IMG/VR virus record: IMGVR_UViG_2541047891_000001
Direction: 5' to 3' (one strand)
DNA from: a virus
Lineage: Duplodnaviria; Heunggongvirae; Uroviricota; Caudoviricetes
DNA length: 18,532 nucleotides
Shown: one piece after another, positions 1,585-18,532 of the stretch
How positions within the stretch are numbered: the stretch's first letter is position 1
Layout of the letters: each line of letters starts with the position of its first letter
Made by a program: the position numbers and the translations under genes
Notes under the pieces: model-generated
The model's database searches: none
The model's input: only the letters and a program-made list of their open reading frames with translations
What the model was told of the DNA's origin: nothing

Positions 1585-4500
1585 TACCGATATGCTCCAC
1601 TTAACCGACCACCATCACGGGCCTGCTGTTGCATAAAGTCCGCTGCCGCTTTTTTCCCAAGGTCATAAACCACCTTCAGGGCAGCCGGACCTATCTGCCC
1701 GTTCGTGCCATCGTTATTGATCTCGATGTTGTACTGCGGGGAAAACATCGCCATACCTGAACCCCCAATATCCGCCACAACCCCCAGCTTACCGTCAGCA
1801 CCACGACGCAATGGCAGAATGGCTTCAGGTCCCGCTTCCCCCATCACACCCGCGCCTTTTGCAAAAGCAAAAAACGTCGGACGGTTAACCACCGTGCCAC
1901 TGTAACGACTCAAATCAGCAGACTGATAAATCCCCCCATTGGCATTCAGGGAAAGGCTGCTGAGATCAAATCCCAGTACACTGCCAATCCCTTTTATCGA
2001 TTTCATCATGGTTGCCTGCGCCAGGATTTTCGCCATATCTGACAGCACAGAAGAGGTGAAGGATTTGAAATTGAGTTTGCCGGTAGTGACAAAAGTTGCC
2101 AGGCCATTTCCCATGTTGCTGAAGGCTGACGAGAACACCTGTTCTGCTGTTTCTGCCGTATTATCTGCATCCACGGTAAAATCCTGAAATGCACGCAGGA
2201 CTCCGTTTTTCCAGTTACCCTGCACAACTTCAAGCTGTTGCCAGTAACGGCGATTCTCATTCAGTTGTCGGTTCAGGCTCTCCGTCAGCGCCTGCTCGGC
2301 CTTTCTGTAGTCATCCGTGTTATATGTCCCTTTCTGCTCACTATCCCGCCTCAACTGCTCCAGCTGTTGCTGGTATTTCTGGCGAAGACTCAGTTGTACC
2401 TGATATCGCTGTCGCTGCTGATCACCCATACCCACCGTGGCGATATCCAGGTCATGTTGCTGACGCTGAGCGCGCTCTTCTTCAGCCAGTTGACTGGTCA
2501 GCTGAATTGTTTTTTTCTTCAGCTCGTTGAGTGCCGTCTGTTTCTGAAGCTCCTGCTGTTTTACATCCAGCAGCGTCAGTGCCTGAATCAGTTCATCTTT
2601 ACGGGCCAGCACACTCTTTTCATCTGCCGTCAGTTTTTTCCCGTCCAGGTCGCTGATGCGCTGCTGCAGAGCCAGGAGCTGTTTATGCGCTTCTGTCATC
2701 CTTTCCGTGGCAATGCCTGCTGACTGTCTGGCAGCAGCAATCTGTCCTTCCACCTGTGCCTGTTGCTGACTGTACTGCAGCAATAACCGGGTGGCCTCAT
2801 CATTACGGGTTTCGCGTGTTTTTTTCTTACCGGATGCCAGGGCTTTCTCGTAACGTTCATTTTCACGTTGTATCGCCGCATCCCTGACAGCCTGATCGGC
2901 GTACTGCATGGCATTAATACGCGCAATTTCACGCTGATGTCGTGCAGCTTCCGTTTCATTCATCCGGTTCAGTGCAGCATTTTCAGCATTACGGCGTTTC
3001 TGTTGCTCCTGATAATTCCGCTCTGCCTGCTCTTTTGCATCCTGCAAATCCTTCTGGCGTTTTTTCTCCTGAAGATCGTTAAGACGCTGCTGATCGTATT
3101 CAACCTGAGAAGATGATGCCGTCCAGGGGAGTCTTTTCGCCCGCGACACTTTCTCCTGCAAAGTGGCAATCTGCGCATCCAGCGAATCTTCACGACCAAT
3201 ATTCATGGCCGCATCCCAGAACTGCTTCCACCAGTCAGACAAAGTTTGCAGCGTACTGCCCAGCGCATTGAGGTTATTATCAATATCCGCAGTACGCCGA
3301 CCGGTTTCCTCTGCCAGTGCAGACATGGCTATCCGTGCCGCATCACTGGACCGCCCCTGCTCTCCAAGGACGCGTATCTGCTCAAGCTGAGTGGCAGTAA
3401 GAAAATGCAGCTCATTGTCCAGAGACTTCGCGGCATTTACAGGATCATCCTTCAGCCGCTTAAACTGATTTATGGTATCGCTGACCGACTGGCCAACCGA
3501 TCGCTCCATCTGTGCGGCAGCTCTCGCCACCATACCGATATCGTTTCCACGAAATGCACCACTCCCCACCACCTGAGCCAGCGCACCGGCTGCAGCATGT
3601 TGCGTGATACCATTCCCGGAAATAGCACGACTGAGCGTCCACAGCTGCCCGGCAGTGACTCCGGCATAATGCCCCGTCAGCGACAGCTGGCGGTTAAATT
3701 CTTCCCCCTCCTTCTGACCGTCATACCAGGCTTTACCCAGACCATAGACGGCCGCGGTAATACCGCCAATAACCCCGCCCAGCATCATGCCTTTCGGTGA
3801 CATCAGTGTGTCTATCCATCCGGCACGGTTAGCCAGCGTTATCCCGGATCCCCTCAGCGCCCCTAAATTGCCGCGGGCCAGTTCACCTATCAGAACGCCT
3901 ATCTCCTGGCGGGCCGCTGCACTTTTCAGACCCAGCGAATGCGTGGCTTTTCCTGCCCGCTCCATTTTGCGGATATACACTTCTGCAGCACTGCTTACCC
4001 CCAGCTGGGCAGCCCTGGCACGAAGCAACTCAGAAGAAGAAAGATTCTGGCGGGTTGCCTGCTCTTTAAGCTGACGGATAAACGCCACTTTCTGTCGGGT
4101 AGCCTCTGCCTCAGCCTGCGTAAGAACACGGGTTTTCGCCGTAACCTCAGAAATCAGCGCCAGATAATCCTGCTGACCAATCCCGCCACTGTTTCTGGCC
4201 TGTCGGATCTGCTGCTGAATACGCTGTAATTCCTGCAGCCCCGCACTGGCCTGTTTCACACTGTCAATCTGACGATAAAACGCAGCAGCCGCTTTATCCT
4301 GAGCCTCCGCCAGAGCCATGGCCTGCGCCTGTTCCTCGCGCATTTTCTGGCTCAGTGCCTCCATGCGCTGGCGGGTTTTCTCCACCTCGCGGGCCATGCG
4401 TTCATGAGCCTGTGCGTTCTTCTCCACCGTCTGCGCATGGACGGATGCGGCTGTTGCAGCCGAAGAAGCTGCCTGCGTTGTCTGCCGGGCGGCCTGAGTC

Positions 4501-7837: not shown

Positions 7838-9796
7838 TTACGCCGTACATTTCACCAGACCGCGGTGATCAACTGGCGCGACACCGGCGTCAATACGCAC
7901 TTTCGTTGTCACGCCATCCACACTGAAGCCCTCCATCTGATCAATATATGGCGTATCCACACCGTTGAGATAAGCCACTTCAATCGTATCGGAGCCTTTT
8001 GACGCAGCCAGGTAGAAGGTGGTCTGGCTGTTATCATCAAGACGAGGCTCTGCAATAACGGTCGCAAAATCTTTCACCGGGTTAATAATACCGGCGTTAA
8101 TGTCAGCCCCCTTGACACTTGAGGAGCGAATGACCTGGTTAGCAACAGACTCCATCGCCGTCGGTACCAGTACGAACGCAGGACGAATATTCAGATGACG
8201 CTCCCCCTCTTTCTGAACGCGCATCAACTGGCGGGCTTTATCCAGCGATGCCACGTCCATTGCAGCGCTCTCCAGTACGTTTGCATGTTTCGCTTTATCG
8301 AACAGACTTACATTATCTGTGGAGATTTTCGGGTTAGACGTCAGAATGGCATAAACCAGATCGGCAATAGTGGATTTCGCCGCACGGCCCAGTTTCATCG
8401 GGACATCGGTCAGCATATTCAGATCATCATTGATAATGGCCTGACGGGTGATACTGAACAGCTCGCCATAGGTCGCCAGTGCAATAGTGGCCTGTTTATC
8501 TCCGGTGGTGACGTATTTATATTCCGCCCCTTCACGCACCTGACGCAGAGCACTGAAGCCCCCCATACCCACACGATGGGCAATTTTAAAATCAGACAAC
8601 TGACCTTTCCGCGTCCATTGTTCATAGGTTTCAGGAGCATCTTCCCAGCCCTGCAGAATGGCTTTGTTCGCAACATCCAGCAGAATATTACCGAAGTCAG
8701 ACGTACTGTGGGTGAACGCCGCACCGACCATCTGCATCGGGTTATAACCGGAAACCCCAATACCCCGTTCAGTCAGTGACATACGGGCATATTCACGCAG
8801 GGTCATCCCGTTGTAGACATTATCACGTTCGGTTTTTTCAAATCCGGCACGCGCCATCAGCGCCTGGCGGATCCCGTCCCCCACAAAATTACCGTTACCA
8901 GCATAAATATGAGCCGGTGTATTTTTATTGGATGGCGTGGACTCGCGCCCCATCTCGTTCAACAGCTTTTCGCGGGCCTGCTCCAGCGAACACTCAGGAT
9001 CGGCAAGACACTGAGCCTGCAGCGTCTGATAACGCCCGCCAAACATGGCAAACAGATCATTAATACCGTTTACACGCGCTTTTTGCTCTGCCAGTACCTG
9101 CGCACGGATACTGTTTTCATCCACCACGGGTGCTGCTGCCTGCACTGGCGTCCGGGAGGCTGCAGGTTCATCATCCTGTACGCGTGGAGCACTGTTGCGT
9201 GGCGGAGTAATCATGTTTCGAATGGATTCCGGCATCTTTTTAAATTCCTCTGTACGTTTTGACTGAATACATGCCATTGCCTTAACGGCTGGCGTCACCT
9301 GATCAGCAAATCCATGTGCCAGACATTCGGCACCGGACATCCAGGTCTCATCCGCCAGCATGGCAGCAATTTCATCGGTGGTTTTCCCGGTTTTCTGTGC
9401 ATAAGCGGGTAACAGAACCGCCTCAACCTTATCGAGCAGGTCGGCATAGGTGCGCATGTCCTCCGCATCACCGCCCGTAAAGCCAAATGGTTTATGAATC
9501 ATCATGAAGGTGTTTTCCGGCATAATGACCGGGTTTCCCACCATCGCAATGACCGACGCCATTGACGCCGCCACACCGTCGACATAAACGGTAATGGACG
9601 CACCATGTGTTTTCAGCGCATTAAAAATGGCGATGCCTTCAAAGACATCGCCACCCGGTGAATTGATATGGAGATTAATGTGGGTGATATCGCCCAGTGC
9701 ATTCAGATCACTGATAAACTGCTTCGCTGTAACACCCCAGAAACCAATCTCGTCATAAATATAAATATCCGCGTCACTCTGGTGACCAGCCTGCAT
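7838..9796 (-). CDS. Prohead protease / scaffold-like / major capsid fusion protein (ClpP-like N-terminal domain, HK97-fold capsid C-terminal domain)
   Basis: N-terminal region has ClpP-type motifs (GDITHINLHINSPGGDVFEGIAIFNAL, VDGVAASMASVIAMVG, MMIHKPFG). The middle is a coiled, A/Q-rich segment. The C-terminal ~350 aa are capsid-like. Start chosen at ATG 9796-9794, 13 nt after the portal stop; the ORF-track start at 10057 would overlap the portal gene by about 250 nt. Confidence 0.75.
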   Translation of the reverse strand: MQAGHQSDADIYIYDEIGFWGVTAKQFISDLNALGDITHINLHINSPGGDVFEGIAIFNALKTHGASITVYVDGVAASMASVIAMVGNPVIMPENTFMMIHKPFGFTGGDAEDMRTYADLLDKVEAVLLPAYAQKTGKTTDEIAAMLADETWMSGAECLAHGFADQVTPAVKAMACIQSKRTEEFKKMPESIRNMITPPRNSAPRVQDDEPAASRTPVQAAAPVVDENSIRAQVLAEQKARVNGINDLFAMFGGRYQTLQAQCLADPECSLEQAREKLLNEMGRESTPSNKNTPAHIYAGNGNFVGDGIRQALMARAGFEKTERDNVYNGMTLREYARMSLTERGIGVSGYNPMQMVGAAFTHSTSDFGNILLDVANKAILQGWEDAPETYEQWTRKGQLSDFKIAHRVGMGGFSALRQVREGAEYKYVTTGDKQATIALATYGELFSITRQAIINDDLNMLTDVPMKLGRAAKSTIADLVYAILTSNPKISTDNVSLFDKAKHANVLESAAMDVASLDKARQLMRVQKEGERHLNIRPAFVLVPTAMESVANQVIRSSSVKGADINAGIINPVKDFATVIAEPRLDDNSQTTFYLAASKGSDTIEVAYLNGVDTPYIDQMEGFSVDGVTTKVRIDAGVAPVDHRGLVKCTA

Positions 9797-9809
9797 CCTG
9801 AACCAGGAA

Positions 9810-11318
9810 TTATTCTTCGGACTGGTCGTCGGTGTGCTGCGGCTCCTGTCGTTTCGTTGCGGCACTGCTGCCTCCTTTATCACTGGCCGGATCGGTATCA
9901 AATACCAGATCCAGCTTGCGGTTTTCATCAATTTCTGCCTTGCGCCGACGTTTGACATCATCCGGATTACGACCACCTGCACGTACCCAGTCTGATTCTG
10001 TCGCCGCTCCACCACGAATCTGAATTTTCCAGGCCTCAGCCTCCTTAACAGGGTCAATCCACGGCATCACCGGTCCGGAATACACCGCGGTATACAGTGA
10101 AGAACGGTCAAGATCGCGGGGTAGCCTGATAACACCGGATGCCACAGCCTGTTTCAGCCAGGCACGATACATCGGGCGGGTGACGGCACCAATAAACCAG
10201 TCCTGCAGGATCAGGTAGCCATCAGTGGATTCAACCAGCTCCTGACGCTGGGCGCTGTAAGTGCCGTTATAGTTGCGCGCTGTACTGGAAAAACTCAGAC
10301 GACTGCCCGCCGCCACGGCACGCAACTGACCATTACGAAAAGTTTCAAGGTTAGGATTGGGGCGATCCGACTTCACCATTCCGATTTCTTCGCCGGGTTT
10401 CAGATCGTCGTAAATAATGCCTGGCTGAATGGTAAGCTCGCGTTCATTCTCCTTGCTGTCATTACCATCCGTTTCATAGCTCTGTCCGTCGCCTTTGCGG
10501 ATGTACATCCCCAGAGCAGCAGCGATCCTTGCTGCAGTCAGCTCAGAATCTTCATATTCTTTCAGGGCACTGAGGCGGATCAGCACACCGGACAATAAAG
10601 ACGTCCCGCGCATCTGGTGCAGACGGCGAACAAATTTAAGATGCAGCATTCGCTCTGCATCCACTTCTTTGGTTTCCATCTGCCGTCCGGATACAGGACG
10701 ACTTTTATACACCAGATATTTTTCGGGACGCCCCCAGTCATCAACAAACACGCCCTGATTCAGCCTGTTGCTCTCATCACTGGTCATGGGAATAAAGTCT
10801 GGCTCGAGTGCCTCCAGCCAGAAATGAACACCGGCAGAAGGCGTCAGGCTGTTTATGCGCCCGGAAACCATCTGGGCAAACACCTCACCATCGCGCAGCC
10901 AGGTACGCAGCATCAGACGTTCCAGCATCGGACGGGTAAACTGCCCGGTAACTTCCGGACTGACAGACCATTCACTCCATCGGGTGCGTATCTCCGCTGC
11001 CAGATCACGGGCAATGGCCCCATTGCGTAATACCGGATGTGGCTCGACAATAATCCCGTTTTTCCCCACCACCCGTTCTTCCAGCTTGTCAAATACACCA
11101 ATGACCAGATCGTGGTTGTTATCAAGGTAACGGGCCTGCTCACGTAACGACACGGCCCCGTAGAGGCTTAACTGGTCGGCAGTTCGGTTTTCCCGCCGGG
11201 CTTTGTGTGTCCGCGTCGTTTTTACGGCCTCATAAGCCTGGATCACCGCCCGGGAACGCAGCCTTGCCGCTTTCCATCCTGGTGAAAAAACGCCAATCAC
11301 ATCATCAAGAATTGCCAT
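9810..11318 (-). CDS. Portal protein
   Basis: About 502 aa, lying between the W-like gene and the protease-capsid gene. Start ATG at 11318-11316 overlaps the W-like stop (TGATG coupling). Acidic C-terminus, typical of portals. The family is not lambda gpB by my recollection, so the call is by position, size and composition. Confidence 0.75.
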   Translation of the reverse strand: MAILDDVIGVFSPGWKAARLRSRAVIQAYEAVKTTRTHKARRENRTADQLSLYGAVSLREQARYLDNNHDLVIGVFDKLEERVVGKNGIIVEPHPVLRNGAIARDLAAEIRTRWSEWSVSPEVTGQFTRPMLERLMLRTWLRDGEVFAQMVSGRINSLTPSAGVHFWLEALEPDFIPMTSDESNRLNQGVFVDDWGRPEKYLVYKSRPVSGRQMETKEVDAERMLHLKFVRRLHQMRGTSLLSGVLIRLSALKEYEDSELTAARIAAALGMYIRKGDGQSYETDGNDSKENERELTIQPGIIYDDLKPGEEIGMVKSDRPNPNLETFRNGQLRAVAAGSRLSFSSTARNYNGTYSAQRQELVESTDGYLILQDWFIGAVTRPMYRAWLKQAVASGVIRLPRDLDRSSLYTAVYSGPVMPWIDPVKEAEAWKIQIRGGAATESDWVRAGGRNPDDVKRRRKAEIDENRKLDLVFDTDPASDKGGSSAATKRQEPQHTDDQSEE

Positions 11319-11530
11319 CAGAACCTCGCCAGCCGGTACCCGGGATGCCCCCGTCGTCGTGTAATCAGAGCCGCAAGGCGGCGCTCCCACTCCTGCCGTC
11401 CCTGCCGGATCTCAGATAAGTTTTCCATGGTCATCTGCTGACCATTAAAGGTGACGGATTTTCCGTCCAGCACCGCCATTTCAGCTTCCGTATAACGCTG
11501 AATCATGGCTTCGATATCATTCTGGTTCAT
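11318..11530 (-). CDS. gpW-like head-tail joining protein
   Basis: 70 aa from the ATG at 11530-11528 (GGAGG 6 nt upstream), overlapping the terminase stop (ATGA). The C-terminal RRRGHPGY resembles the lambda W C-terminus (RRRGPAGF) as I recall it. Position between terminase and portal. Confidence 0.65.
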   Translation of the reverse strand: MNQNDIEAMIQRYTEAEMAVLDGKSVTFNGQQMTMENLSEIRQGRQEWERRLAALITRRRGHPGYRLARF

Positions 11531-13246
11531 AACCATCCTCCGGAAGTCAGCCAGGGGTTAACATCGTCAGTTACTGTTTTCTTCCGTTTTTGTTTTTTAA
11601 CAGGCGTGGATACCGGTTCCGGTGAGGGTGACGGTTCGGTACTGTCCGGGACACACTCCAGCCAGGTTTCCCGGCTCGCCCACTCCGGTGCATCCGGCCA
11701 GCGGATCTTTTCGTATCCATGCAGAATGACCAGAGCCTCGGCATACACCATCAGGTCAAAAGCTTCGTTGGCACCGCGACCCGGCTTACTCCATTTCCCG
11801 TCACTGCTCCGCTCTTCATACGTCAGTTCGTCGTAAAACCAGCTCCCCAGCCAGTCAGGGAAATGCACATAGCCGGGACCTGGCGAGTCACGCCATAACG
11901 CGTTATTCACCCGGTCTTTCAGTGCATCCGTCTGAAGAAGCCAGAGCGGCACATCACCTGCGGCCTGCGCCCGTCGGCCCGTTCGTCCGGTGTTATCAGG
12001 GAATGTACGGGTGATCAGTTTTGCGCGCCGGATGCTGTCGCCCTTAAACAGGTAAATACGTTTACCAAGGCCATCACGACGGCAACGACGCCAGAATTTA
12101 TAGGCATTATCAGTGACCCCGTCTTCACCGCCGGAGTCCACCGCCATTGCCATCAGTCGCATTTGTTGAGAAGGATCGGAGGCCAGCGGCCAGCTTTTAT
12201 GAAAAACATCCGTCAGCAGGACATCCCAGTCTTCCGGATAGCTGGCCGGATCAATTCGCTGGCTCTCCCCGTCGCAGTCACTGCGCAATGACTGCGTGAT
12301 ATTGTAACGATCAATAATCCAGCGTTCGCCACGACTGCCATAGCCCGTTACCTGAACCACAAAACGGCGATGACGTCCCGCCTGCACATCCACTGTCGCC
12401 ACAAGGAAATTAACGCCATCCGGCACACTGCAGGAAGGAACTGGCTCTGCCCGCTGCTCAAGCAGTTCACTTTTTCGTTGCTCCATGCTGGCACGAGGAA
12501 GATAAGGCAATCCCCAGTCGGTGTTGATAACCGCCCTGAGTGTTTCTTCGCTTCCTGTCGCTTCATACTCCTGTTCTGCAGTCAGTAATTTGTAAACCAG
12601 TTGCGCCCAGGTCTGATACGCAGCAGCTGGCCCTTCCATCCAGAAACTGGCGATACGGGAGCGGCGCGGTTCACCGGAAACGTTGCCGTTACGATCAATG
12701 ACCTGACCTTCACGCAACCAGACTCCTGCACTATTGAGCTCACGCTTTTTCTCCGCAGTGATAATGCCGCTGCAGTGCGGGCAAAGTAGATACGCCGCCT
12801 CACTGGCTTTAAAGGGATCCGGTTCATTACGGTAGCCGGTCATGGCATCCATAGCTGGCTGAAAATATTCACCGCAGTGCGGACATGGCCAGTACCAGCG
12901 GCGGCGGTCACCACGATTGTAAAGGGAAAGAATACCAGTCGTCGGTGGAGCTTCATGAGGCGACTTACGTCGCCATTTGCTGTCGCAGATGTCACGTCCC
13001 GGCGAGCTCTCCACCAGAGTCATCCCGGCGGACATAAATGTGGTGGTACGTTTTGAGGCCAGGGAGAAACCATCACCCTCGCTGTCGATATTCTCCGGAA
13101 AACGGTCGTAATCGGTTAAGGCGACAAACCGGTAATCCGACGATGACATAATGTTGACCGAGGGCCAACCAATTTTAAGGAACGAGCCATCCCTGAACGT
13201 CTTATCATGGACATTATTGTCGTTACGACGTGGACTCATTCTTTTC
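11527..13246 (-). pseudogene. Terminase large subunit (gpA-like), truncated at the 5' end by the IS66-family junction; N-terminal ATPase Walker A region missing
   Basis: The 570 aa ORF aligns with the lambda gpA region from the Walker-B-like segment (VALTDYDRF) through the CPHCG zinc motif and the nuclease domain. About 130-170 N-terminal residues are absent. The reading frame runs directly into the IS terminus at 13247. Confidence 0.8.
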
Positions 13247-15003
13247 GTAAGCGGCTCGTCAGAACCGTATTGATATTTACTGAGAGCTCAGATCAACTTT
13301 CCAGGGCAACAGATCGCGTACCCGGTTTGCCGGCCAGTCCTGGATATGTTCAATGACGTAGCGCAGCCATTTTTCTGGCTCCACATTGTTCAGACGGCAT
13401 GTGCCGATCAGCGAGTACAACACCGCCGCATGTTCGCCACCGCTGTCGGAACCTGCGAACAGCCAGTTTTTCCGGCCCACGGCCACACCCCGTAAGGCGT
13501 TCTCTGCGATGTTGTTGTCGATTTCCACCCAGCCATTACTGCAGTACACGTTCAGGGCCTCCCACTGTTTCAGCAGGTATGCGAACGCTTTTGCCGTATC
13601 TGAGTGACGCGACAGTGTTTTCATCTGTTGCTGTATCCAGTCATACAGTGACTGCATCAGTGGCGCGGCTCTGGCTTTTCTTGCCGCCAGACGCTGTTCT
13701 GCTGAACAGCCCCGGACCTCTGCCTCGATGGCATACAGTTCACCGATACGCTGCAGGGCTTCCGTGGTGATGTCGGTGGGCGCTCTTGCATGCACATCGT
13801 GGATTTTTCTCCGGGCATGAGCCATACACGCGGCTTCCGTTATTCTGCCGGATTCGTATAACGCCCGGTAACCACCGTAAGCATCGGCCTGAAGCACACC
13901 GCTGTAACCGGCCAGGTGATTTTGTGGATGGATACCTTTCCGGTCCGGACTGTACGCGAACCAGACCGCCGGGGGCATCTGTGAACCGGCGTTGCGGTCA
14001 TCACGGACGTAGACCCACAGCCGGGCTGTCCGGGTTTTACCGCTGCCCGGCTCCTGGACCGGGACGGGGATATCATCGGCATGGACTTTACCGGGCATCA
14101 GCACATACTGGCGCAGGACGTCATACAGCGGCTCCAGCAGTTCAGCAACAGCACCTGTCCAGCGCCCCAGTGTGGCACGGCTCAGCTCCACTCCCTGACG
14201 ACGGTATATTTCTGACTGGCGGTATAACGGCAGATGGTCTGCATATTTCCCGGTGACAACATGGGCCAGAAGCCCCGCTCCGGCATAACTGCGTGCAATG
14301 GGTTTTGAAGGTACTGGTGCCTGCACGATATGGTCGCACCGGCAACAGGCCAGTTTCGGACGTTGTATTTCGATAACCTTAAAGGCGCTGCTGATAAGCT
14401 CCAGTTGCTCTGACACATCACATCCCAGAGAACTGAGTTCACCACCACAGGCAGGACAGCATTCCTCTTCCGGCCGGATAACCCGGGTTTCACGGGGAAG
14501 TGAGGCCGGTAACGGTTTACGGGCTGAAGACTGGCGCAGGGCGGATGGCAGTACCGGGTCATATTGCTCACCCAGCGTTTCCGCCATTTCTTCCTGAAGT
14601 GCGCTGATTCGCTCCTGTGCTTCCTGTATCTGCCGTTCGGTTTTTGCACGAAGTTTTTCTGAGCTTTTACCGAACTGCATACGTTGCAGTTTCGCAACCA
14701 GCGCCTTCAGCCGGTTGATTTCGGAAGCATAAGCCGCCACCCGCTGTGAGAGCAGGCGGTTGTATTCAGCCATCTGGCGGATGGTGTCCTGTTGCGTCTG
14801 CAACAGTGCCCGCAGGCGGGCGTTCTCATGAGCAAGTGAGGTGTCCATATCCTCACTTTACAACGGGTTATATGCGGATTCCAGCGCGTTCCGTTCGTTT
14901 CGGGTGCTTCCAGTTGATACCTTCAAGAAGCATGGATAACTGAGCCGGAGTAAGGTGCACCTTGCCGTTACGGGTGACTGGCCAGACGAAGCGGCCCCGC
15001 TCC
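13247..15003 (-). mobile_element. Truncated IS66-family insertion sequence (3' end of tnpB, complete tnpC and one terminal repeat; tnpA, most of tnpB and the other terminus are absent)
   Basis: The terminus at 13247 reads GTAAGCGGCTCGTC inward on the plus strand, consistent with IS66-family ends as I recall them. tnpC is at 13277-14848. The tnpB C-terminal motif ([32 protein letters not shown]) is encoded at about 14868-15000. The upstream boundary (about 15003) is inferred from where cold-shock homology stops. Confidence 0.75.
13277..14848 (-). CDS. tnpC: IS66-family transposase TnpC
   Basis: 523 aa with an N-terminal leucine-zipper-like coiled coil, a zinc-finger segment (CCPACGG...CCRCDH), DDE-region motifs and a CMAHARRK motif, all characteristic of IS66 TnpC. 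ATG at 14848-14846. Confidence 0.85.
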
Positions 15004-15167
15004 ATAGAGAAGGTAACCTTTTGACCTTCAAATAAGGTTCGATAATTATCATTCTGAATCGCAGAAAAATGCACAAACACATCTTTACTACCATCAACAG
15101 GAGAAATAAAGCCGAAACCTTTATCAGCGTTAAACCATTTTACTAAACCAGTCATTTTATTTGACAT
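14868..15167 (-). pseudogene. Chimeric ORF: N-terminal ~54 aa of a CspB-like cold-shock protein fused in frame to the C-terminal ~45 aa of IS66 TnpB
   Basis: [54 protein letters not shown] is a cold-shock domain with RNP motifs. It is followed by [45 protein letters not shown], a TnpB C-terminus. ATG at 15167-15165 with AAGGA upstream. Confidence 0.7.
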
Positions 15168-15465
15168 TCTACATTCCTTAACTTGAGCCTTTCGGCATAA
15201 ATGGTTTGCATAACAGAAACGACTTCGTACTTAATTGGAGAGACTCAAAGAAGGAATAAGTGAATAACACCTGAAATGAGAACTGCTTTAGTAAACTACT
15301 TCGTATATCGTCTGTTCTTCAAACCGACGCAGTCATTAACTCATAGTTGAACATATGAAGCAATGTTTATTTTAGACATCCAGCCACCTTCAACCCTATC
15401 AAAAAAGTAGTTTTCTCCAGGAACGTGTGTATGGTGCACCAGGTTATCAGTATTAAGGAGTTTTT

Positions 15466-15680
15466 CTGTCCCCTAAAATGACAGGAATTGTCAAAAACTT
15501 TGACTACAAAAGCAGCAAAGGTCTTATATTCCCATCCGATGGCGTATCGATGCCCAGCTTCACGTTTCAGCTCTCAATCTTCGAGATGCAGAAGAAATTA
15601 CCACAGGATTACGCGTGGAATTTTGCCGGATAAATGGTTCGCGTGGACCTTCAACTGCCAATGTTTATCCCGGGATGAGA
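15466..15680 (+). pseudogene. cspF-like cold-shock gene remnant, frameshifted and probably with a mutated start codon
   Basis: One frame gives [22 protein letters not shown] (ATG at 15478). The next frame, from about 15543, gives [42 protein letters not shown]. Together these are the two halves of a single cold-shock domain. AAGGAG at 15455-15460 is spaced for a start at 15466, which is CTG here. Confidence 0.55.
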
Positions 15681-15711
15681 TTCAATATCTCTATTGCCCC
15701 ATTTAAAGCAC

Positions 15712-15740
15712 AAAAACCCGCTTATCAGCGGGTTTTCTAC
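15712..15740. terminator. Bidirectional intrinsic terminator
   Basis: Plus strand reads AAAAACCCGCT-TATC-AGCGGGTTTT with an A-run on one side and a T-run on the other. It lies after the cspF-like gene (plus strand) and about 45-60 nt downstream of the candidate late promoter (minus strand). Confidence 0.5.
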
Positions 15741-15782
15741 TTTTTTCTAAACGTCGGATACACAAAGCCCATCGTTGAGAAA

Positions 15783-15811
15783 ATCTTATCCATGTTTTTT
15801 GAAAAATGCAA
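15783..15811 (-). promoter_or_regulatory. Candidate sigma-70 promoter downstream of Q (possible PR'-like late promoter)
   Basis: On the minus strand: TTGCAT (-35; plus-strand 15806-15811), a 17 nt spacer, then TAAGAT (-10; plus-strand 15783-15788). It is followed by the terminator at 15712-15740, giving a PR'-tR'-like layout just 3' of the antiterminator gene. Confidence 0.3.
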
Positions 15812-15842
15812 ACATCATGTCGCCATCTTCAGCAAAAATCAT

Positions 15843-16595
15843 TTATCTCGTCACCTTCCTCAATTGCGCTTCCGCGTATGCTTCTTCCTGCCAGCACTTT
15901 GTTACCAGTTTATCAATGACGTCCGCATACCCCTTATACCACTGATAATCGGTCAGGTCTGGTACCAGCTTCTGGACATGACGTCGTGCCAGCGTGGTTG
16001 GTAAACGACTAAACCGGTTTCCATTACAACGCCCACAAATCTTATATACCGGTACGCCATGAAACCGGGTTCTTTTTTCATCCAGAACAATCCCTTTACC
16101 CTTACACCCTCTGCACGCTGTGCTGACTTCGCCCTTACCATGGCAATGCTGACATAGTTCCTTCACCCATTCTTCCTTGATTACAGATTCCCCGCGTCTG
16201 TAGTGTTTCACCACTTCGCGCAATACATTATAAAATCCCGTACCTGAACAATGCTCACAGCGAGCCTTACTTGCCGCAGACCTGGAGTAATCAGCAAAGG
16301 CAAAACTCACGAGGTAAGGAATAATCTGTAACCGGATTTCTTCACTCAATTTGTTCAATGTCGGGTTATCCAGTGCCATCGCGTAATTTAGCAGGCCTTC
16401 AATCGCAAACTGAGGGTCCTGAACACCAACTTTTGCCAGAAATAAGGCCAACCCAAGTGGTGCTTTCGACTGCACCATCCCCTGCGCTGCCATTACATCC
16501 GTAATTGTTAAACAACCGGTGCCTGTCGCTGGAGCGTCATCGCTCAATTTTGGAGATTTTGGGGAGTAATATTTTGGTAAGGCTTCAAGGTTCAT
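15843..16595 (-). CDS. Late antiterminator Q (phage 82 / Qin quuQ-type)
   Basis: About 250 aa from the ATG at 16595-16593 (GGAG 8 nt upstream). The N-terminus [20 protein letters not shown] and multiple CxxC zinc motifs ([30 protein letters not shown]) match the QuuQ/YdfT-type Q protein of E. coli Qin-like prophages as I recall it. Confidence 0.85.
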
Positions 16596-16608
16596 GCTCG
16601 TTCTCCAC

Positions 16609-17697
16609 TTACGCCAGTACGCCAATTGCCAGCGCGCTATCGATAAAACGAAATATCAGCTCCAGTTGGGAGCCATACTTCTCTTCAAATGCCACTGTAT
16701 CCGTATGCAGCTCGTTGTGATGCTTTCTGCACAAAGGCAACACAAAGAGATCATGTGCTTTTGTTCCCATTCCGCCCTGCCCGTGACCAATCAGATGATG
16801 CGGATCGTCGGCTGGCATACCGCAGCAAGCACACGGCTGTGTCTTAACCCAACGTGTGTATTTCTCCTTAACCCAGCGGCGACGTTTAGGCAGCTTCATG
16901 AAAGATTCCGGAGACTCTGGATCAACGGTGATGCTTACCACCGTCTTTTCCTGTGGTGGTTTTTGTTGCTGGTAGGCGTAAGGCAACGGTGCAAGATTTT
17001 TTGTGCGTTGTTTCAATATGCTGGTGGCGGTCTGCTCTCCCGGTACGATGTCGCTTTCGCGGTACACCGAGCAGATTTTTTCCGCTGGTAATCCCAGCGA
17101 ACGACGCGATACAGCCTCAGGTAGTGCATCCACCACCTGATTGCAGACCGCCCACCAGGATAATTCAGCCAAAGATAATTCCCGCTCCTGCGTACCGCTT
17201 ATTGCGTGACGGATGACGTCAATCACCCATGCTGTCAGATTTTGTTGAGCAAGCAGATCCAGTGATTCCGATGTCTGGTCACGCAGTTGGTTGTCGCAGT
17301 GCCAACACAACACCATTGCGCCGGTACCATAACGGTGAATGACTGTTTCAGAGTGATGGTAATCGCCATTAGGCCACTGGCAGGATGTAACATGACGTAA
17401 TAGCCAGTCAGACAATGCGCCAACGCCGCCAGCAGCACGAATCACCCGTTCGTTACTAAAAAACGGCAGCAATGTTTTGTCTTCCACCAGCGGCTGGCGA
17501 ACGGCAGGAACAACTCCGGATGGCAGATTACGCATGCTTTTTGGTTCCGGTTCCACCAGCACTCGAGGATTATGAAATATCTGTATGGATTCACGGCCCG
17601 GCTTAAGGACCACCAGCCCAAGCTCAGGCACCAGAACAGGTCTAAGTAATACCCGCACGTTACCTCCAGATCCGTTGCTGGAAAGTGCGGGACGCAC
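16609..17697 (-). CDS. DUF968 / YdfU-like protein with a C-terminal HNH-like zinc-finger motif
   Basis: The C-terminus CACCGMPADDPHHLIGHGQGG...NDLFVLPLCRKHHNELH has an HNH nuclease-like signature. Synteny (upstream of Q, downstream of rem) matches ydfU of Qin. The ORF-track start at 17697 is GTG, so the true start is uncertain; the first in-frame ATG is at 17535. Confidence 0.7.
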   Translation of the reverse strand: MRPALSSNGSGGNVRVLLRPVLVPELGLVVLKPGRESIQIFHNPRVLVEPEPKSMRNLPSGVVPAVRQPLVEDKTLLPFFSNERVIRAAGGVGALSDWLLRHVTSCQWPNGDYHHSETVIHRYGTGAMVLCWHCDNQLRDQTSESLDLLAQQNLTAWVIDVIRHAISGTQERELSLAELSWWAVCNQVVDALPEAVSRRSLGLPAEKICSVYRESDIVPGEQTATSILKQRTKNLAPLPYAYQQQKPPQEKTVVSITVDPESPESFMKLPKRRRWVKEKYTRWVKTQPCACCGMPADDPHHLIGHGQGGMGTKAHDLFVLPLCRKHHNELHTDTVAFEEKYGSQLELIFRFIDSALAIGVLA

Positions 17698-17938
17698 GTG
17701 GTGGGCGTTCGGAGTAAGGCAATCTGACTGAGATTATCCAGTGACGGTAGTCGAGGCTAAGGGCTTTCTTAACCTCGTATCCGCGCCTGCGGTAACACTG
17801 AATTATCCATTCAGCCTGCTCTTCAGTGCATGGAGGGTGTTGGAACCATTCAGACTTGAATGCGTGAGAATACCGCTCGTGCGTGCAGACAAGAACGGGC
17901 GAATTATCAGAATTGTAATATTTTACGTTGCGTGCCAT
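17660..17938 (-). CDS. Hypothetical small protein (92 aa), 3' end overlapping the DUF968 ORF
   Basis: ATG at 17938-17936 with GGAG 7 nt upstream. Cys/His-containing N-terminal half (VLVCTHERYSH...HPPCTEEQAEW). I do not recognise the family. Confidence 0.4.
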   Translation of the reverse strand: MARNVKYYNSDNSPVLVCTHERYSHAFKSEWFQHPPCTEEQAEWIIQCYRRRGYEVKKALSLDYRHWIISVRLPYSERPPRASRTFQQRIWR

Positions 17939-18004
17939 CGGTTTTCTCCGGTGGCACGGTGTTACTCAGCGGGAGTTCAGCCCCGCGCAAGATTGTAGAT
18001 GAGT

Positions 18005-18256
18005 TTATTCTTCTGCAAAAGCTGAAAAGCCTGCTTTTATTCCGATCTCTTTCAGTGCCTGTAATGAAGTGACAAACTCACCTTCGCGCAAGATAAATCC
18101 GTCCGTGACTCGAGCATCCACAAAATTAATTAACGCAGCCCCATTCTTTCGCAAACACAGAATGCGGTAATGACTAACAATGTTTCCATTTTCAACGCAC
18201 ACAGCATAGAGGCCATCTTCACAAAAAATTTTACGCAGTTCTTCGATGTTCATCAT
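18005..18256 (-). CDS. rem: Rem-like small protein (83 aa, unknown function)
   Basis: 83 aa ORF (MMNIEELRKIFCEDGLYAVCVENG...) between the DUF968 gene and hok, as for rem in the Qin prophage. The sequence match is from memory only. Confidence 0.55.
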   Translation of the reverse strand: MMNIEELRKIFCEDGLYAVCVENGNIVSHYRILCLRKNGAALINFVDARVTDGFILREGEFVTSLQALKEIGIKAGFSAFAEE

Positions 18257-18334
18257 CAGAATCCTTCCGGATAATTAACTCTCCCCTTTAAGGGACCATC
18301 CCTCTTATCCCTGCGCGCTACTTAAGTATTTTTG

Positions 18335-18364
18335 ATTCTATTCCGGCACCGTCCAGAACTTCAA
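18335..18364 (-). promoter_or_regulatory. Candidate promoter for rem
   Basis: On the minus strand: TTGAAG (-35), an 18 nt spacer, then TAGAAT (-10), about 80 nt upstream of the rem ATG. Confidence 0.25.
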
Positions 18365-18371
18365 ACGCGTT

Positions 18372-18402
18372 GAAAATAAAAACAAAAACCCGCCGAAGCG
18401 GG
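18372..18402 (-). terminator. Intrinsic terminator at the 3' end of the hok transcript
   Basis: Minus strand reads CCCGCTTCGGCGGG (GC stem with TTCG loop) followed by TTTTTGTTTTTATTTT, about 70 nt downstream of the hok stop. Confidence 0.55.
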
Positions 18403-18473
18403 TTAAGTGCGGGTGCGTTGAGGATGCCTGTCACATCAGAGGTGGCGAGGGATTTCTCCCTCGCCGGGTCTCT

Positions 18474-18532
18474 TACTCCTCAGGTTCGTAAGCTGTGAAG
18501 ACAGCGACCTCCGTCTGGCCGGTTCGGATTCG
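18474..18532 (-). CDS. hokD: Hok/Gef-family type I toxin, 3' end only (start lies beyond the window end)
   Basis: Minus-strand translation of the window end gives ...RIRTGQTEVAVFTAYEPEE followed by a stop, matching the HokD/RelF C-terminus as I recall it. Not in the ORF track because it is partial. Confidence 0.7.

Follow-up and report, generated by a model that had tools for sequence, protein, structure and literature searches.

The Qin-like lambdoid prophage of Escherichia coli UMEA 3108-1 very probably carries a decay scar, left by the insertion of an ISCro1 element and then by one deletion. In the window analyzed here, an 18,532-nt stretch of DNA, a truncated IS66-family element abuts a 5'-truncated terminase gene on one side and, on the other, is joined in frame to the beginning of the cold-shock gene cspB (Table 1). 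The first-pass annotation had placed a truncated IS66-family element at a deletion junction, and the alignments uphold this reading. The locus is an ordinary, strain-private scar of prophage decay.

Table 1. Features of the remnant and of its surroundings, with positions in the window.
Feature	Positions	Strand	Basis
5'-truncated large terminase gene (gpA-like)	11527..13246	-	Pfam, BLAST to the ST866 prophage, protein comparison
tnpC-proximal terminal inverted repeat of ISCro1, GTAAGCGGCTCGTCAGAACCGT	13247..13268	+	Alignment to complete 2,699-bp copies with 8-bp target duplications
tnpC, ISCro1 DDE transposase, full length (523 aa)	13277..14848	-	Four Pfam domains
Native tnpB-tnpC spacer (19 nt), GAGGA just before the tnpC ATG	14849..14867	-	Identical to reference ISCro1
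Chimeric ORF, CspB(1-54)-Met-TnpB(72-115), 99 aa	14868..15167	-	Pfam and nucleotide alignment
tnpB 3' remnant, codons 72-115 and stop	14868..15003	-	TnpB_IS66 (E = 2.8e-8), alignment
Deletion junction, 1 nt common to tnpB and cspB	15004..15004	.	Four-way alignment (window, K-12 cspB, ST866 cspB, ISCro1 tnpB)
cspB codons 1-54 and 1 nt	15005..15167	-	CSD profile positions 1-54 of 66
cspB 5' UTR (161 nt), part of a cspA-type mRNA thermoregulator	15168..15328	-	Rfam RF01766
cspB promoter region	15329..15400	-	Assignment inferred from the start position of the Rfam model
GC-rich hairpin and T-tract after the candidate late promoter	15736-15713	-	Scan found the hairpin on the + strand; function putative
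Candidate late promoter, TTGCAT-17 nt-TAAGAT	15811-15783	-	Read from the sequence
ydfT/quuQ-type antitermination protein Q gene	15843..16595	-	Pfam Antiterm (E = 9.5e-55), annotation of homologous loci
30-mers spanning the two junctions, GGACTCATTCTTTTCGTAAGCGGCTCGTCA and GCGGCCCCGCTCCATAGAGAAGGTAACC			

ISCro1, a member of the IS66 family, was described from Citrobacter rodentium ICC168 and is common on E. coli chromosomes and plasmids. The complete element measures 2,699 bp, and five of its reference copies are flanked by 8-bp target duplications. Positions 13247-15004 correspond to 1,758 of these 2,699 bp (approximately 65% of the element) and align without gaps to six E. coli ISCro1 copies at 98.9-99.2% identity (99.1% over 1,758 bp); identity to ISEc8 is about 71% at the nucleotide level. 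On nucleotide identity, the segment is therefore ISCro1 itself and not a new IS. Sixteen differences separate it from the canonical sequence, 14 of which are absent from all six reference copies compared. The remnant has the terminal repeat, the tnpC length, the tnpB stop codon and the 19-nt spacer of ISCro1, but only one terminus, and it lacks the 941 bp that hold the other terminus, tnpA and 61% of tnpB. Remnants of ISCro1 are also on record in C. rodentium ICC168, where they account for two of its 24 ISCro1 insertions (PMC3072379).

Alignment to the reference copies confirmed the exact position of the terminus (GTAAGCGG...), which begins at 13247 as had been predicted; the other end of the IS part, which had been set at 15003, was nearly exact, the true end being 15003/15004. 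The terminal inverted repeats of ISCro1 begin with GTAA, and the second of the two is missing: with up to three mismatches allowed, the copy at 13247 was the single one in the 18.5-kb window. The three-gene organization tnpA-tnpB-tnpC is likewise broken, with tnpA absent and tnpB reduced to the last 44 of its 115 codons; the segment is a remnant of ISCro1 and not a complete member. A single-ORF IS66 element (ISBst12-like subgroup) was also considered and ruled out, since the segment is collinear with the three-ORF ISCro1 into tnpB and no second terminus is found within 13247-15003. With one terminus and no tnpA, the remnant should be unable to transpose, judging from what is known of the family, and the single repeat supports the immobility that was expected in the first-pass annotation. 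The flank visible beside the retained terminus is TTCTTTTC, the opposite one having been deleted. It is similar to TTATTTTC, the duplication that flanks one reference copy, but no consensus target emerged among five others.

The tnpC product matches LZ_Tnp_IS66, zf-IS66, DDE_Tnp_IS66 (E = 1.8e-104) and DDE_Tnp_IS66_C, all above the Pfam cut-offs, and is of the same length as the reference protein. Fourteen nucleotides distinguish the gene from the canonical copy; nine of these differences are synonymous and five are non-synonymous (T161I, Q166L, Y359D, D430E, and M463L). Of the five substitutions, three affect positions that are variable in IS66 relatives, and every column that is invariant across four aligned TnpC proteins is retained. 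T161I and Q166L, which sit between the cysteine pairs of the zinc finger, are absent from the three relatives compared; "intact" therefore means that tnpC is full length, its activity being putative. The gene had been placed about 20 nt downstream of the chimeric ORF, and it does occupy its native position behind the tnpB stop, at a distance of 19 nt. Because the spacing between GAGGA and the ATG is very short, translation of tnpC may be poor.

The chimeric ORF, which bears the label "cold shock-like protein CspB" in GenBank, matches the Pfam family CSD at residues 5-58 and TnpB_IS66 at residues 55-90 (profile positions 64-100 of 101). Nucleotide alignment resolves the join into cspB nt 1-163, one common nucleotide, and tnpB codons 72-115 with the stop, and thus bears out the proposal that the element breaks off within tnpB and is fused in frame to about 54 codons of cspB; the similarity of 14868-15000 to tnpB is also real, as the TnpB_IS66 match indicates. 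The tnpB part departs from the canonical copy at a single site (nt 14969, D to N). In the cspB part, the RNP1 and RNP2 motifs are retained and the last 17 residues (55-71 of CspB) are replaced, so that the last strand of a complete cold-shock domain (approximately 66-70 residues) is missing. In intact cspB, the junction falls at the center of a 12-bp palindrome, TCTCTA/TAGAGA. A 5-nt overlap reported by BLAST at the join was discarded, as it contains a mismatch; the perfect microhomology is 1 nt. A single-sequence AlphaFold model of the chimera was too poor for interpretation (mean pLDDT 50.3).

The source of the window is an Illumina-era, scaffold-level draft, GCA_000460155.1, in which both junction-carrying scaffolds derive from the same reads, and the cspB/tnpB join could in principle be a chimeric contig. 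The window ends at a scaffold end, the second scaffold has a 3,741-bp overlap with it and breaks off 56 nt into tnpC, and public contigs frequently stop at the same cspB position, nt 162-164. However, the region contains no Ns, kilobases on either side are collinear with real elements, and the IS copy has its own SNP pattern both before and after the place where that scaffold breaks off. Moreover, only 1 nt is common at the join, and therefore no k-mer overlap could have merged the two sequences. Such an artefact is thus extremely improbable. As regards the contig ends in cspB, IS200C was rejected as their cause: in strain 98224, cspB is intact and this element follows it downstream instead of occupying the site. 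Other natural junctions at the palindrome of cspB were likewise dismissed, since all 55 viral-contig variants proved to be the A163G (I55V) SNP.

The breakpoints in the prophage were defined against the intact Qin-like prophage of strain ST866 (NZ_CP077646; sequence L004), to which the window is 98.8-99.3% identical. By BLAST, positions 10601-13246 correspond to 1-2646 of that sequence, and positions 15000-18532 to 8996-12528 (99.3% identity). This alignment, which the first-pass annotation had called for, delimits the deleted interval: about 6.35 kb of prophage DNA is missing, with the genes for the small terminase (DUF1441), gnsB, ynfN, cspI, and ynfU, the lysis cassette (holin, lysozyme, and Rz), and the last 17 codons of cspB. 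On the other side, homology to the intact terminase gene reaches 13246 (position 2646 of the ST866 prophage) and directly adjoins the IS terminus, as had been described. The first 380 nt of the gene are absent; the remaining ORF (11527-13239, minus strand) begins at the native Met130 (13239) of the 699-aa protein. Residues 1-129, which include the Walker A motif GPARTGKT (residues 72-79), are gone, so that GpA_ATPase is matched at profile positions 97-247 of 247 and GpA_nuclease in full.

Intact terminase subunits and a lysis cassette, both of which a functional lambdoid prophage has, are lacking here, and by its gene content the prophage is incapable of cell lysis or DNA packaging. The loss of both sets of genes in one deletion explains how it was disabled. 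Its late backbone is that of the K-12 Qin and ST866 prophages (hokD, rem, ydfU, ydfT(Q), cspF, cspB ... terminase, portal, head, tail), and K-12 Qin is also defective through an internal deletion. However, the two deletions differ: K-12 Qin kept the lysis cassette, cspB, and cspI and lost head and tail genes, whereas the prophage in the window kept head and tail genes and lost the lysis cassette, the small terminase, and the 5' end of the large terminase gene.

The cheapest history that we infer for the locus comprises one insertion and one deletion. A variant ISCro1 (tnpA-tnpB-tnpC) would have inserted in the large-terminase gene, its tnpC end facing the 3' part that is retained, and a later, single RecA-independent deletion of about 7.3 kb, by illegitimate recombination, would have joined tnpB codon 71/72 to cspB codon 55. 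The junction between terminus and terminase is what a plain insertion leaves. The tnpB/cspB join, in turn, looks like the product of illegitimate recombination and not like a transposase-made deletion, because the breakpoint lies within the IS and away from its termini, and only 1 nt is common. The earlier view of an IS-associated deletion, as opposed to a simple insertion, stands insofar as the IS sits at the junction; this breakpoint inside the element does not fit it. The order of the two events is unproven, because the deletion removed the second copy of the target duplication that would mark a simple insertion, and searches of complete E. coli genomes, species-representative genomes, and JGI metagenomes yielded no relative that carries an entire ISCro1 at this site of the terminase gene.

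A history in three steps would lead to an identical final structure. ISCro1 would first have resided at another place in the interval from cspB to the terminase gene, perhaps in the DUF1441 gene, as it does in other strains; its tnpC-proximal end would then have attacked the terminase gene intramolecularly, removing the intervening DNA, and a separate last deletion would have taken the remaining half of the element as far as cspB. An adjacent deletion of this kind leaves the precise terminus/terminase junction that is observed, and other Qin-like prophages do bear identically oriented ISCro1 copies at a distance of 0.55-1.0 kb (L004-equivalent positions 3201, 3290, and 3628). These copies are, however, canonical and identical to each other, and they differ from the window copy at 16-19 of 1,758 nt (14 for the closest); descent from them was rejected, and they are independent insertions rather than ancestors. 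As it also demands one event more than an insertion followed by a deletion, the three-step course is unlikely.

An IS66-family element also marks a deletion junction in the Agrobacterium plasmid pAt15955, where a 270-kb deletion in a mobile/accessory region is flanked by IS66 (PMC6778807). In that case, homologous recombination between two complete IS66 copies left one intact copy (PMC6778807), whereas in the prophage considered here the breakpoint lies inside a single ISCro1 copy, with almost no homology.

Among the data searched, both junctions and the chimeric protein occur in E. coli UMEA 3108-1 only. Neither junction was found elsewhere in 5,426 complete E. coli genomes, in species-representative genomes, or in JGI metagenomes, and the single viral contig that matched them (L027) comes from the same genome as the window. 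Similarly, none of the best 120 homologues of the chimera combines CSD with TnpB_IS66 or covers more than 67% of the query. The allele is thus private to one strain and is without sign of selection.

A cold-shock promoter and 5' UTR had been proposed upstream of the chimera, and the RF01766 match corroborates them, with 136.7 bits (gathering threshold 78) as against 158.8 bits for intact cspB. The promoter, the 5' UTR, and the first 163 coding nucleotides are all preserved; the 5' UTR and the retained coding part align to positions 1 to approximately 330 of 428 of the model, and the alignment stops at the junction. The promoter region is exactly that of ST866 and differs from that of K-12 by 2 nt near the -10 element. 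A scan for consensus promoters missed the known cspB promoter itself and is therefore uninformative here, and on the coding strand, a scan from the cspB start to tnpC turned up no convincing terminator. [quoted passage not shown] It is plausible that tnpC, as the second cistron behind cspB'-'tnpB, would be co-transcribed from the cspB promoter in a cold-dependent manner. As the fusion is in frame, ribosomes would still terminate at the native tnpB stop, 19 nt before tnpC, and any native translational coupling would therefore be preserved. At the same time, about 2 kb of IS RNA replaces the 3' end and terminator of cspB, which could affect how the thermosensor mRNA folds or how stable it is.

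A second possible driver of tnpC, overlooked in the first-pass annotation, is Q-dependent late prophage transcription. Just downstream of the Q antiterminator gene, the region 15713..15811 contains a candidate late promoter and a hairpin; if this promoter is active, Q-modified transcription could possibly read through cspB'-'tnpB and tnpC.

On this arrangement one could build the idea of co-option, in which cold shock or prophage induction raises TnpC that mobilizes intact ISCro1 copies in trans, or in which the CspB-TnpB chimera is itself active. The promoter, the thermosensor 5' UTR, the in-frame fusion, the native stop-to-start spacing, and a full-length tnpC are all present, and the TnpB tail of the chimera includes QLSML, a sequence similar to the beta-clamp motif QLSLF/L described for some IS66 TnpB proteins (PMC3971601). 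Against this, the junctions and the chimera are confined to one strain, the pairing of its two domains has no counterpart among the best homologues, the cold-shock domain is curtailed, the structural model is uninformative, and an in-frame join is expected by chance in one case out of three. In work on IS679 by Han et al. in 2001, all three IS66 ORFs were reportedly required for transposition, tnpA and tnpB included, and transposases usually prefer to act in cis. If all three ORFs are required, extra TnpC alone is unlikely to matter. Co-option is accordingly very improbable, and it is still slightly less probable that cold and phage induction together make the remnant a source of active IS66 transposase, with the cspB leader driving TnpC. 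Action of its TnpC in trans, which had been suggested earlier, is speculative, and a biological role of the arrangement is unlikely. Were such a source to exist, cold would raise the transposition of any intact ISCro1 copies elsewhere in the genome, and cold stress would be tied to bursts of rearrangement in the lineage.

Like cspA-family leader fusions (RF01766), the locus keeps the 5' UTR and the early coding region upstream of a foreign coding sequence. Unlike them, the fusion is natural and accidental, has tnpC downstream as a second cistron, and has lost the 3' quarter of RF01766, its cold induction being putative. If the proposed expression is correct, the scar would illustrate in nature, on a small scale, how a stress-responsive leader can capture a transposase gene. 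Beyond annotation, the significance of the decay scar is slight; two database labels are corrected, the 99-aa "CspB" of UMEA 3108-1 being a CspB'-'TnpB chimera and the IS a one-ended remnant of ISCro1.

A megablast search of 5,426 complete E. coli genomes identified the insertion sequence as ISCro1, and no record reached 80% coverage with a query across both junctions. Complete ISCro1 measures 2,699 bp, and five reference copies are flanked by target duplications of 8 bp; in the alignment, the match runs from the terminus GTAAGCGG at 13247 to 15004 and none extends beyond. The truncated IS66-family element recognized in the first-pass annotation therefore retains 1,758 bp of ISCro1 (65%): the tnpC-proximal repeat, tnpC, a 19-nt spacer, and the final 137 nt of tnpB. 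Assignment of 14868-15000 to IS66 tnpB agrees with the Pfam match in the 99-aa open reading frame. A search that tolerated up to three mismatches found no second terminal repeat in the window, which rules out a complete single-ORF IS. Because it has one terminus and no tnpA, the remnant cannot move.

On one side, the IS terminus lies beside a 5'-truncated terminase gene, as first described: homology with the intact gene ends at 13246, and the remaining ORF starts at native Met130 of the 699-residue protein, with loss of the Walker A motif GPARTGKT (72-79). Both flanks of the rearrangement are collinear with the intact Qin-like prophage in strain ST866 (locus L004), with window 10601-13246 equal to L004 1-2646 (98.8% identity) and window 15000-18532 to L004 8996-12528 (99.3% identity). 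This alignment defines a deleted interval of ~6.35 kb, whose gene content was read from the ST866 and K-12 annotations (see table). Adding the 941 bp of absent ISCro1 and, if the insertion was simple, one 8-bp duplication gives a total deletion of ~7.3 kb.

Features of the rearranged region and genes of the missing interval (window positions unless L004 is indicated)
Feature	Position	Strand	Basis or remark
gpA-type large terminase, 570 aa	11527-13239	-	Pfam; ATPase domain from profile position 97 only
IS66 transposase tnpC, 523 aa	13277-14848	-	ORF listing and Pfam; 4/4 family domains, DDE_Tnp_IS66 E=1.8e-104
Chimeric ORF, 99 aa	14868-15167	-	Pfam; CSD residues 5-58, TnpB_IS66 residues 55-90
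Promoter-like TTGCAT-17-TAAGAT, then ~50 nt later a strong GC-rich hairpin	15713-15811	-	Directly downstream of Q gene
Q antiterminator gene	15843-16595
Missing: terminase 5' end and DUF1441 small-terminase gene	L004 2647-8999/9000
Missing: one hypothetical gene and one DUF1398 gene	L004 2647-8999/9000
Missing: gnsB, ynfN, ynfR, ymcF/ynfQ, cspI	L004 2647-8999/9000
Missing: lysis cassette rzpQ, rrrQ, ydfR, essD	L004 2647-8999/9000
Missing: ynfU and cspB 3' end	L004 2647-8999/9000

The second junction was resolved by aligning the window jointly with K-12 cspB, ST866 cspB, and ISCro1 tnpB. The window reads ...ACCTTCTCTAT / GGAGCGGGGCC..., intact cspB reads ...ACCTTCTCTATAGAGAGTGG... across the break, and ISCro1 tnpB reads ...AAACGCCTGGAGCGGGGCC... 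Nucleotides 1-163 of cspB are followed by one T common to both genes (window 15004) and then by tnpB from codon 72, and in the chimeric protein a hybrid Met codon links CspB 1-54 to TnpB 72-115. The in-frame CspB'-'TnpB fusion proposed upstream of tnpC is thus established at base resolution. Perfect microhomology at the join is 1 nt; a 5-nt overlap given by BLAST includes a mismatch and hence is not perfect homology. By chance, one join in three is expected to be in frame. The cold-shock domain of the chimera is without its last strand, a structure model was uninformative, and the 120 best homologues include no further protein with both CSD and TnpB_IS66. Within the remaining TnpB tail, QLSML(L) (chimera residues 76-80; 14895-14912, minus strand) comes near the binding consensus for the beta sliding clamp, Q-L-S-L-F/L; such a motif has been reported for some IS66 elements, in either TnpB or TnpC (PMC3971601).

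The break point in intact cspB is the centre of a 12-bp perfect palindrome, TCTCTA/TAGAGA (window 14999-15010; cspB nt 158-169). This same spot (cspB nt 162-164) is where at least ten public contigs built by different assemblers terminate, and two metagenome contigs have other aberrant joins there, the first to a Streptococcus-like nrdE and the second a fold-back (loci L014-L023, L025, and L026). The common A163G (I55V) polymorphism, found in 55 viral contigs, could create assembly forks at nt 162/163 in samples with two alleles or copies, a mundane explanation that may cover the half of the ten contigs that stop at nt 162. It is also conceivable that the palindrome marks a genuine fragile site. 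Partial CspB proteins of other lengths exist too.

Deletions made by a transposase begin precisely at an IS terminus. Because the breakpoint lies within tnpB, not at the terminus, and shows almost no homology, we read the tnpB/cspB break as ordinary illegitimate recombination that took part of the IS plus prophage DNA. The earlier label of an IS-associated deletion needs softening and applies only insofar as an IS remnant stands at the deletion scar. The terminus/terminase junction has the form left by simple insertion. In the most economical history, ISCro1 would have entered the terminase gene by simple insertion, and one deletion of ~7.3 kb would then have joined tnpB to cspB. A three-step route, with insertion elsewhere, an adjacent deletion into the terminase gene, and a second deletion, appears unlikely, although the target duplication that would separate it from insertion plus one deletion has been lost.

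In related prophages, ISCro1 lies in the same orientation at three other sites within 1 kb (L004-equivalent 3201, 3290, and 3628). These are canonical copies with 16-19 differences from the one in the window and hence independent insertions; the closest reference, a plasmid copy, differs at 14. Another insertion is in a different lambdoid prophage and is not mappable onto ST866. Repeated insertion near packaging genes may reflect regional preference or selection for knocking out those genes. With the window (L004-equivalent 2646), Qin-like prophages have four sites within ~1 kb of their packaging region, all with tnpC towards the terminase gene; the loci listed for these and for the insertion in the other lambdoid prophage are L003 (13003), L007 (4759), L008 (5430), L009 (6224), and window 13247.

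E. coli UMEA 3108-1 (GCA_000460155.1) is the only recorded source of the chimera, of the TnpC variant, and of the truncated terminase; in this strain, the window is the final 18,532 nt of scaffold KE701562.1 and thus reaches the scaffold end. Scaffold KE701563.1 opens with 3,741 nt identical to window 14792-18532, and it ends 56 nt into tnpC. The two are probably neighbours left unmerged in the same assembly, and the stop within the IS hints at further ISCro1-like copies in the genome. In GenBank the 99-aa ORF is named 'cold shock-like protein CspB' and tnpC 'hypothetical protein'; RefSeq names the latter 'IS66-like element ISCro1 family transposase'. Neither junction was found in complete E. 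coli genomes, representative genomes, metagenomes, or other viral contigs, and the allele is private to UMEA 3108-1. The first-pass structural description was accurate; the locus adds one more case to a familiar class of events, in which a decaying prophage carries an IS remnant at the scar of a deletion. No evidence of a function for the arrangement was seen, and functional ideas are speculation.

Han et al. reportedly found in 2001 that IS66 transposition requires all three genes. IS66 elements are organized as tnpABC, and TnpC is thought to be the transposase (PMC6778807). The window tnpC is full length relative to the canonical gene, and its 14 nucleotide differences (9 synonymous, 5 non-synonymous) fit divergence of a working IS lineage, not decay. 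When TnpC is aligned with canonical ISCro1, ISEc8 (60% identity), and a 97%-identical variant, three of the five substitutions are at sites that vary: Y359D (relatives have D or A), D430E (ISEc8 has P), and M463L (both relatives have L). The other two, T161I and Q166L, are located between the cysteine pairs of the zinc finger and occur only in the window copy among the four proteins; every invariant column is preserved. As far as sequence can show, tnpC is intact, with putative activity. Eight of the 16 differences from canonical ISCro1 are bunched in a 124-bp stretch (13436-13559) at the tnpC 3' end, and D359 and L463 agree with the 97%-identical variant, which suggests a mosaic from recombination between IS variants.

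The Rfam cspA thermoregulator model matches 15328-14951 with 136.7 bits (threshold 78; intact cspB, 158.8 bits), and the true alignment comprises the 161-nt 5' UTR plus the kept coding part, stopping at the junction. Upstream of cspB, the aligned region is the same as in ST866 and two bases off K-12 near the -10 element. Since the cspB terminator is gone with the deletion and a coding-strand scan before tnpC found just one weak 5-bp stem, inside the cspB part, transcripts from the cspB promoter should run on into tnpC. Between 37 and 8°C, the change in cspB mRNA is about two orders of magnitude (PMC3704898). [quoted passage not shown] The native tnpB stop codon lies 19 nt before tnpC; because the fusion is in frame, ribosomes would end there and any native tnpB-tnpC coupling would be preserved. 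The hairpin downstream of the Q gene, AAAACCCGC...GCGGGTTTT, has T-tracts on both strands, and the promoter-hairpin arrangement resembles a PR'/tR' late-promoter unit and would double as the cspF terminator. Should Q-modified late transcription take place, it would traverse tnpC, a second possible driver absent from the first-pass account. The cspF gene itself (15466-15680, plus strand) is a pseudogene: compared with K-12 cspF (90% identity), it has lost 1 nt near 15543, which leaves two short ORFs; the ST866 allele is also annotated as frameshifted.
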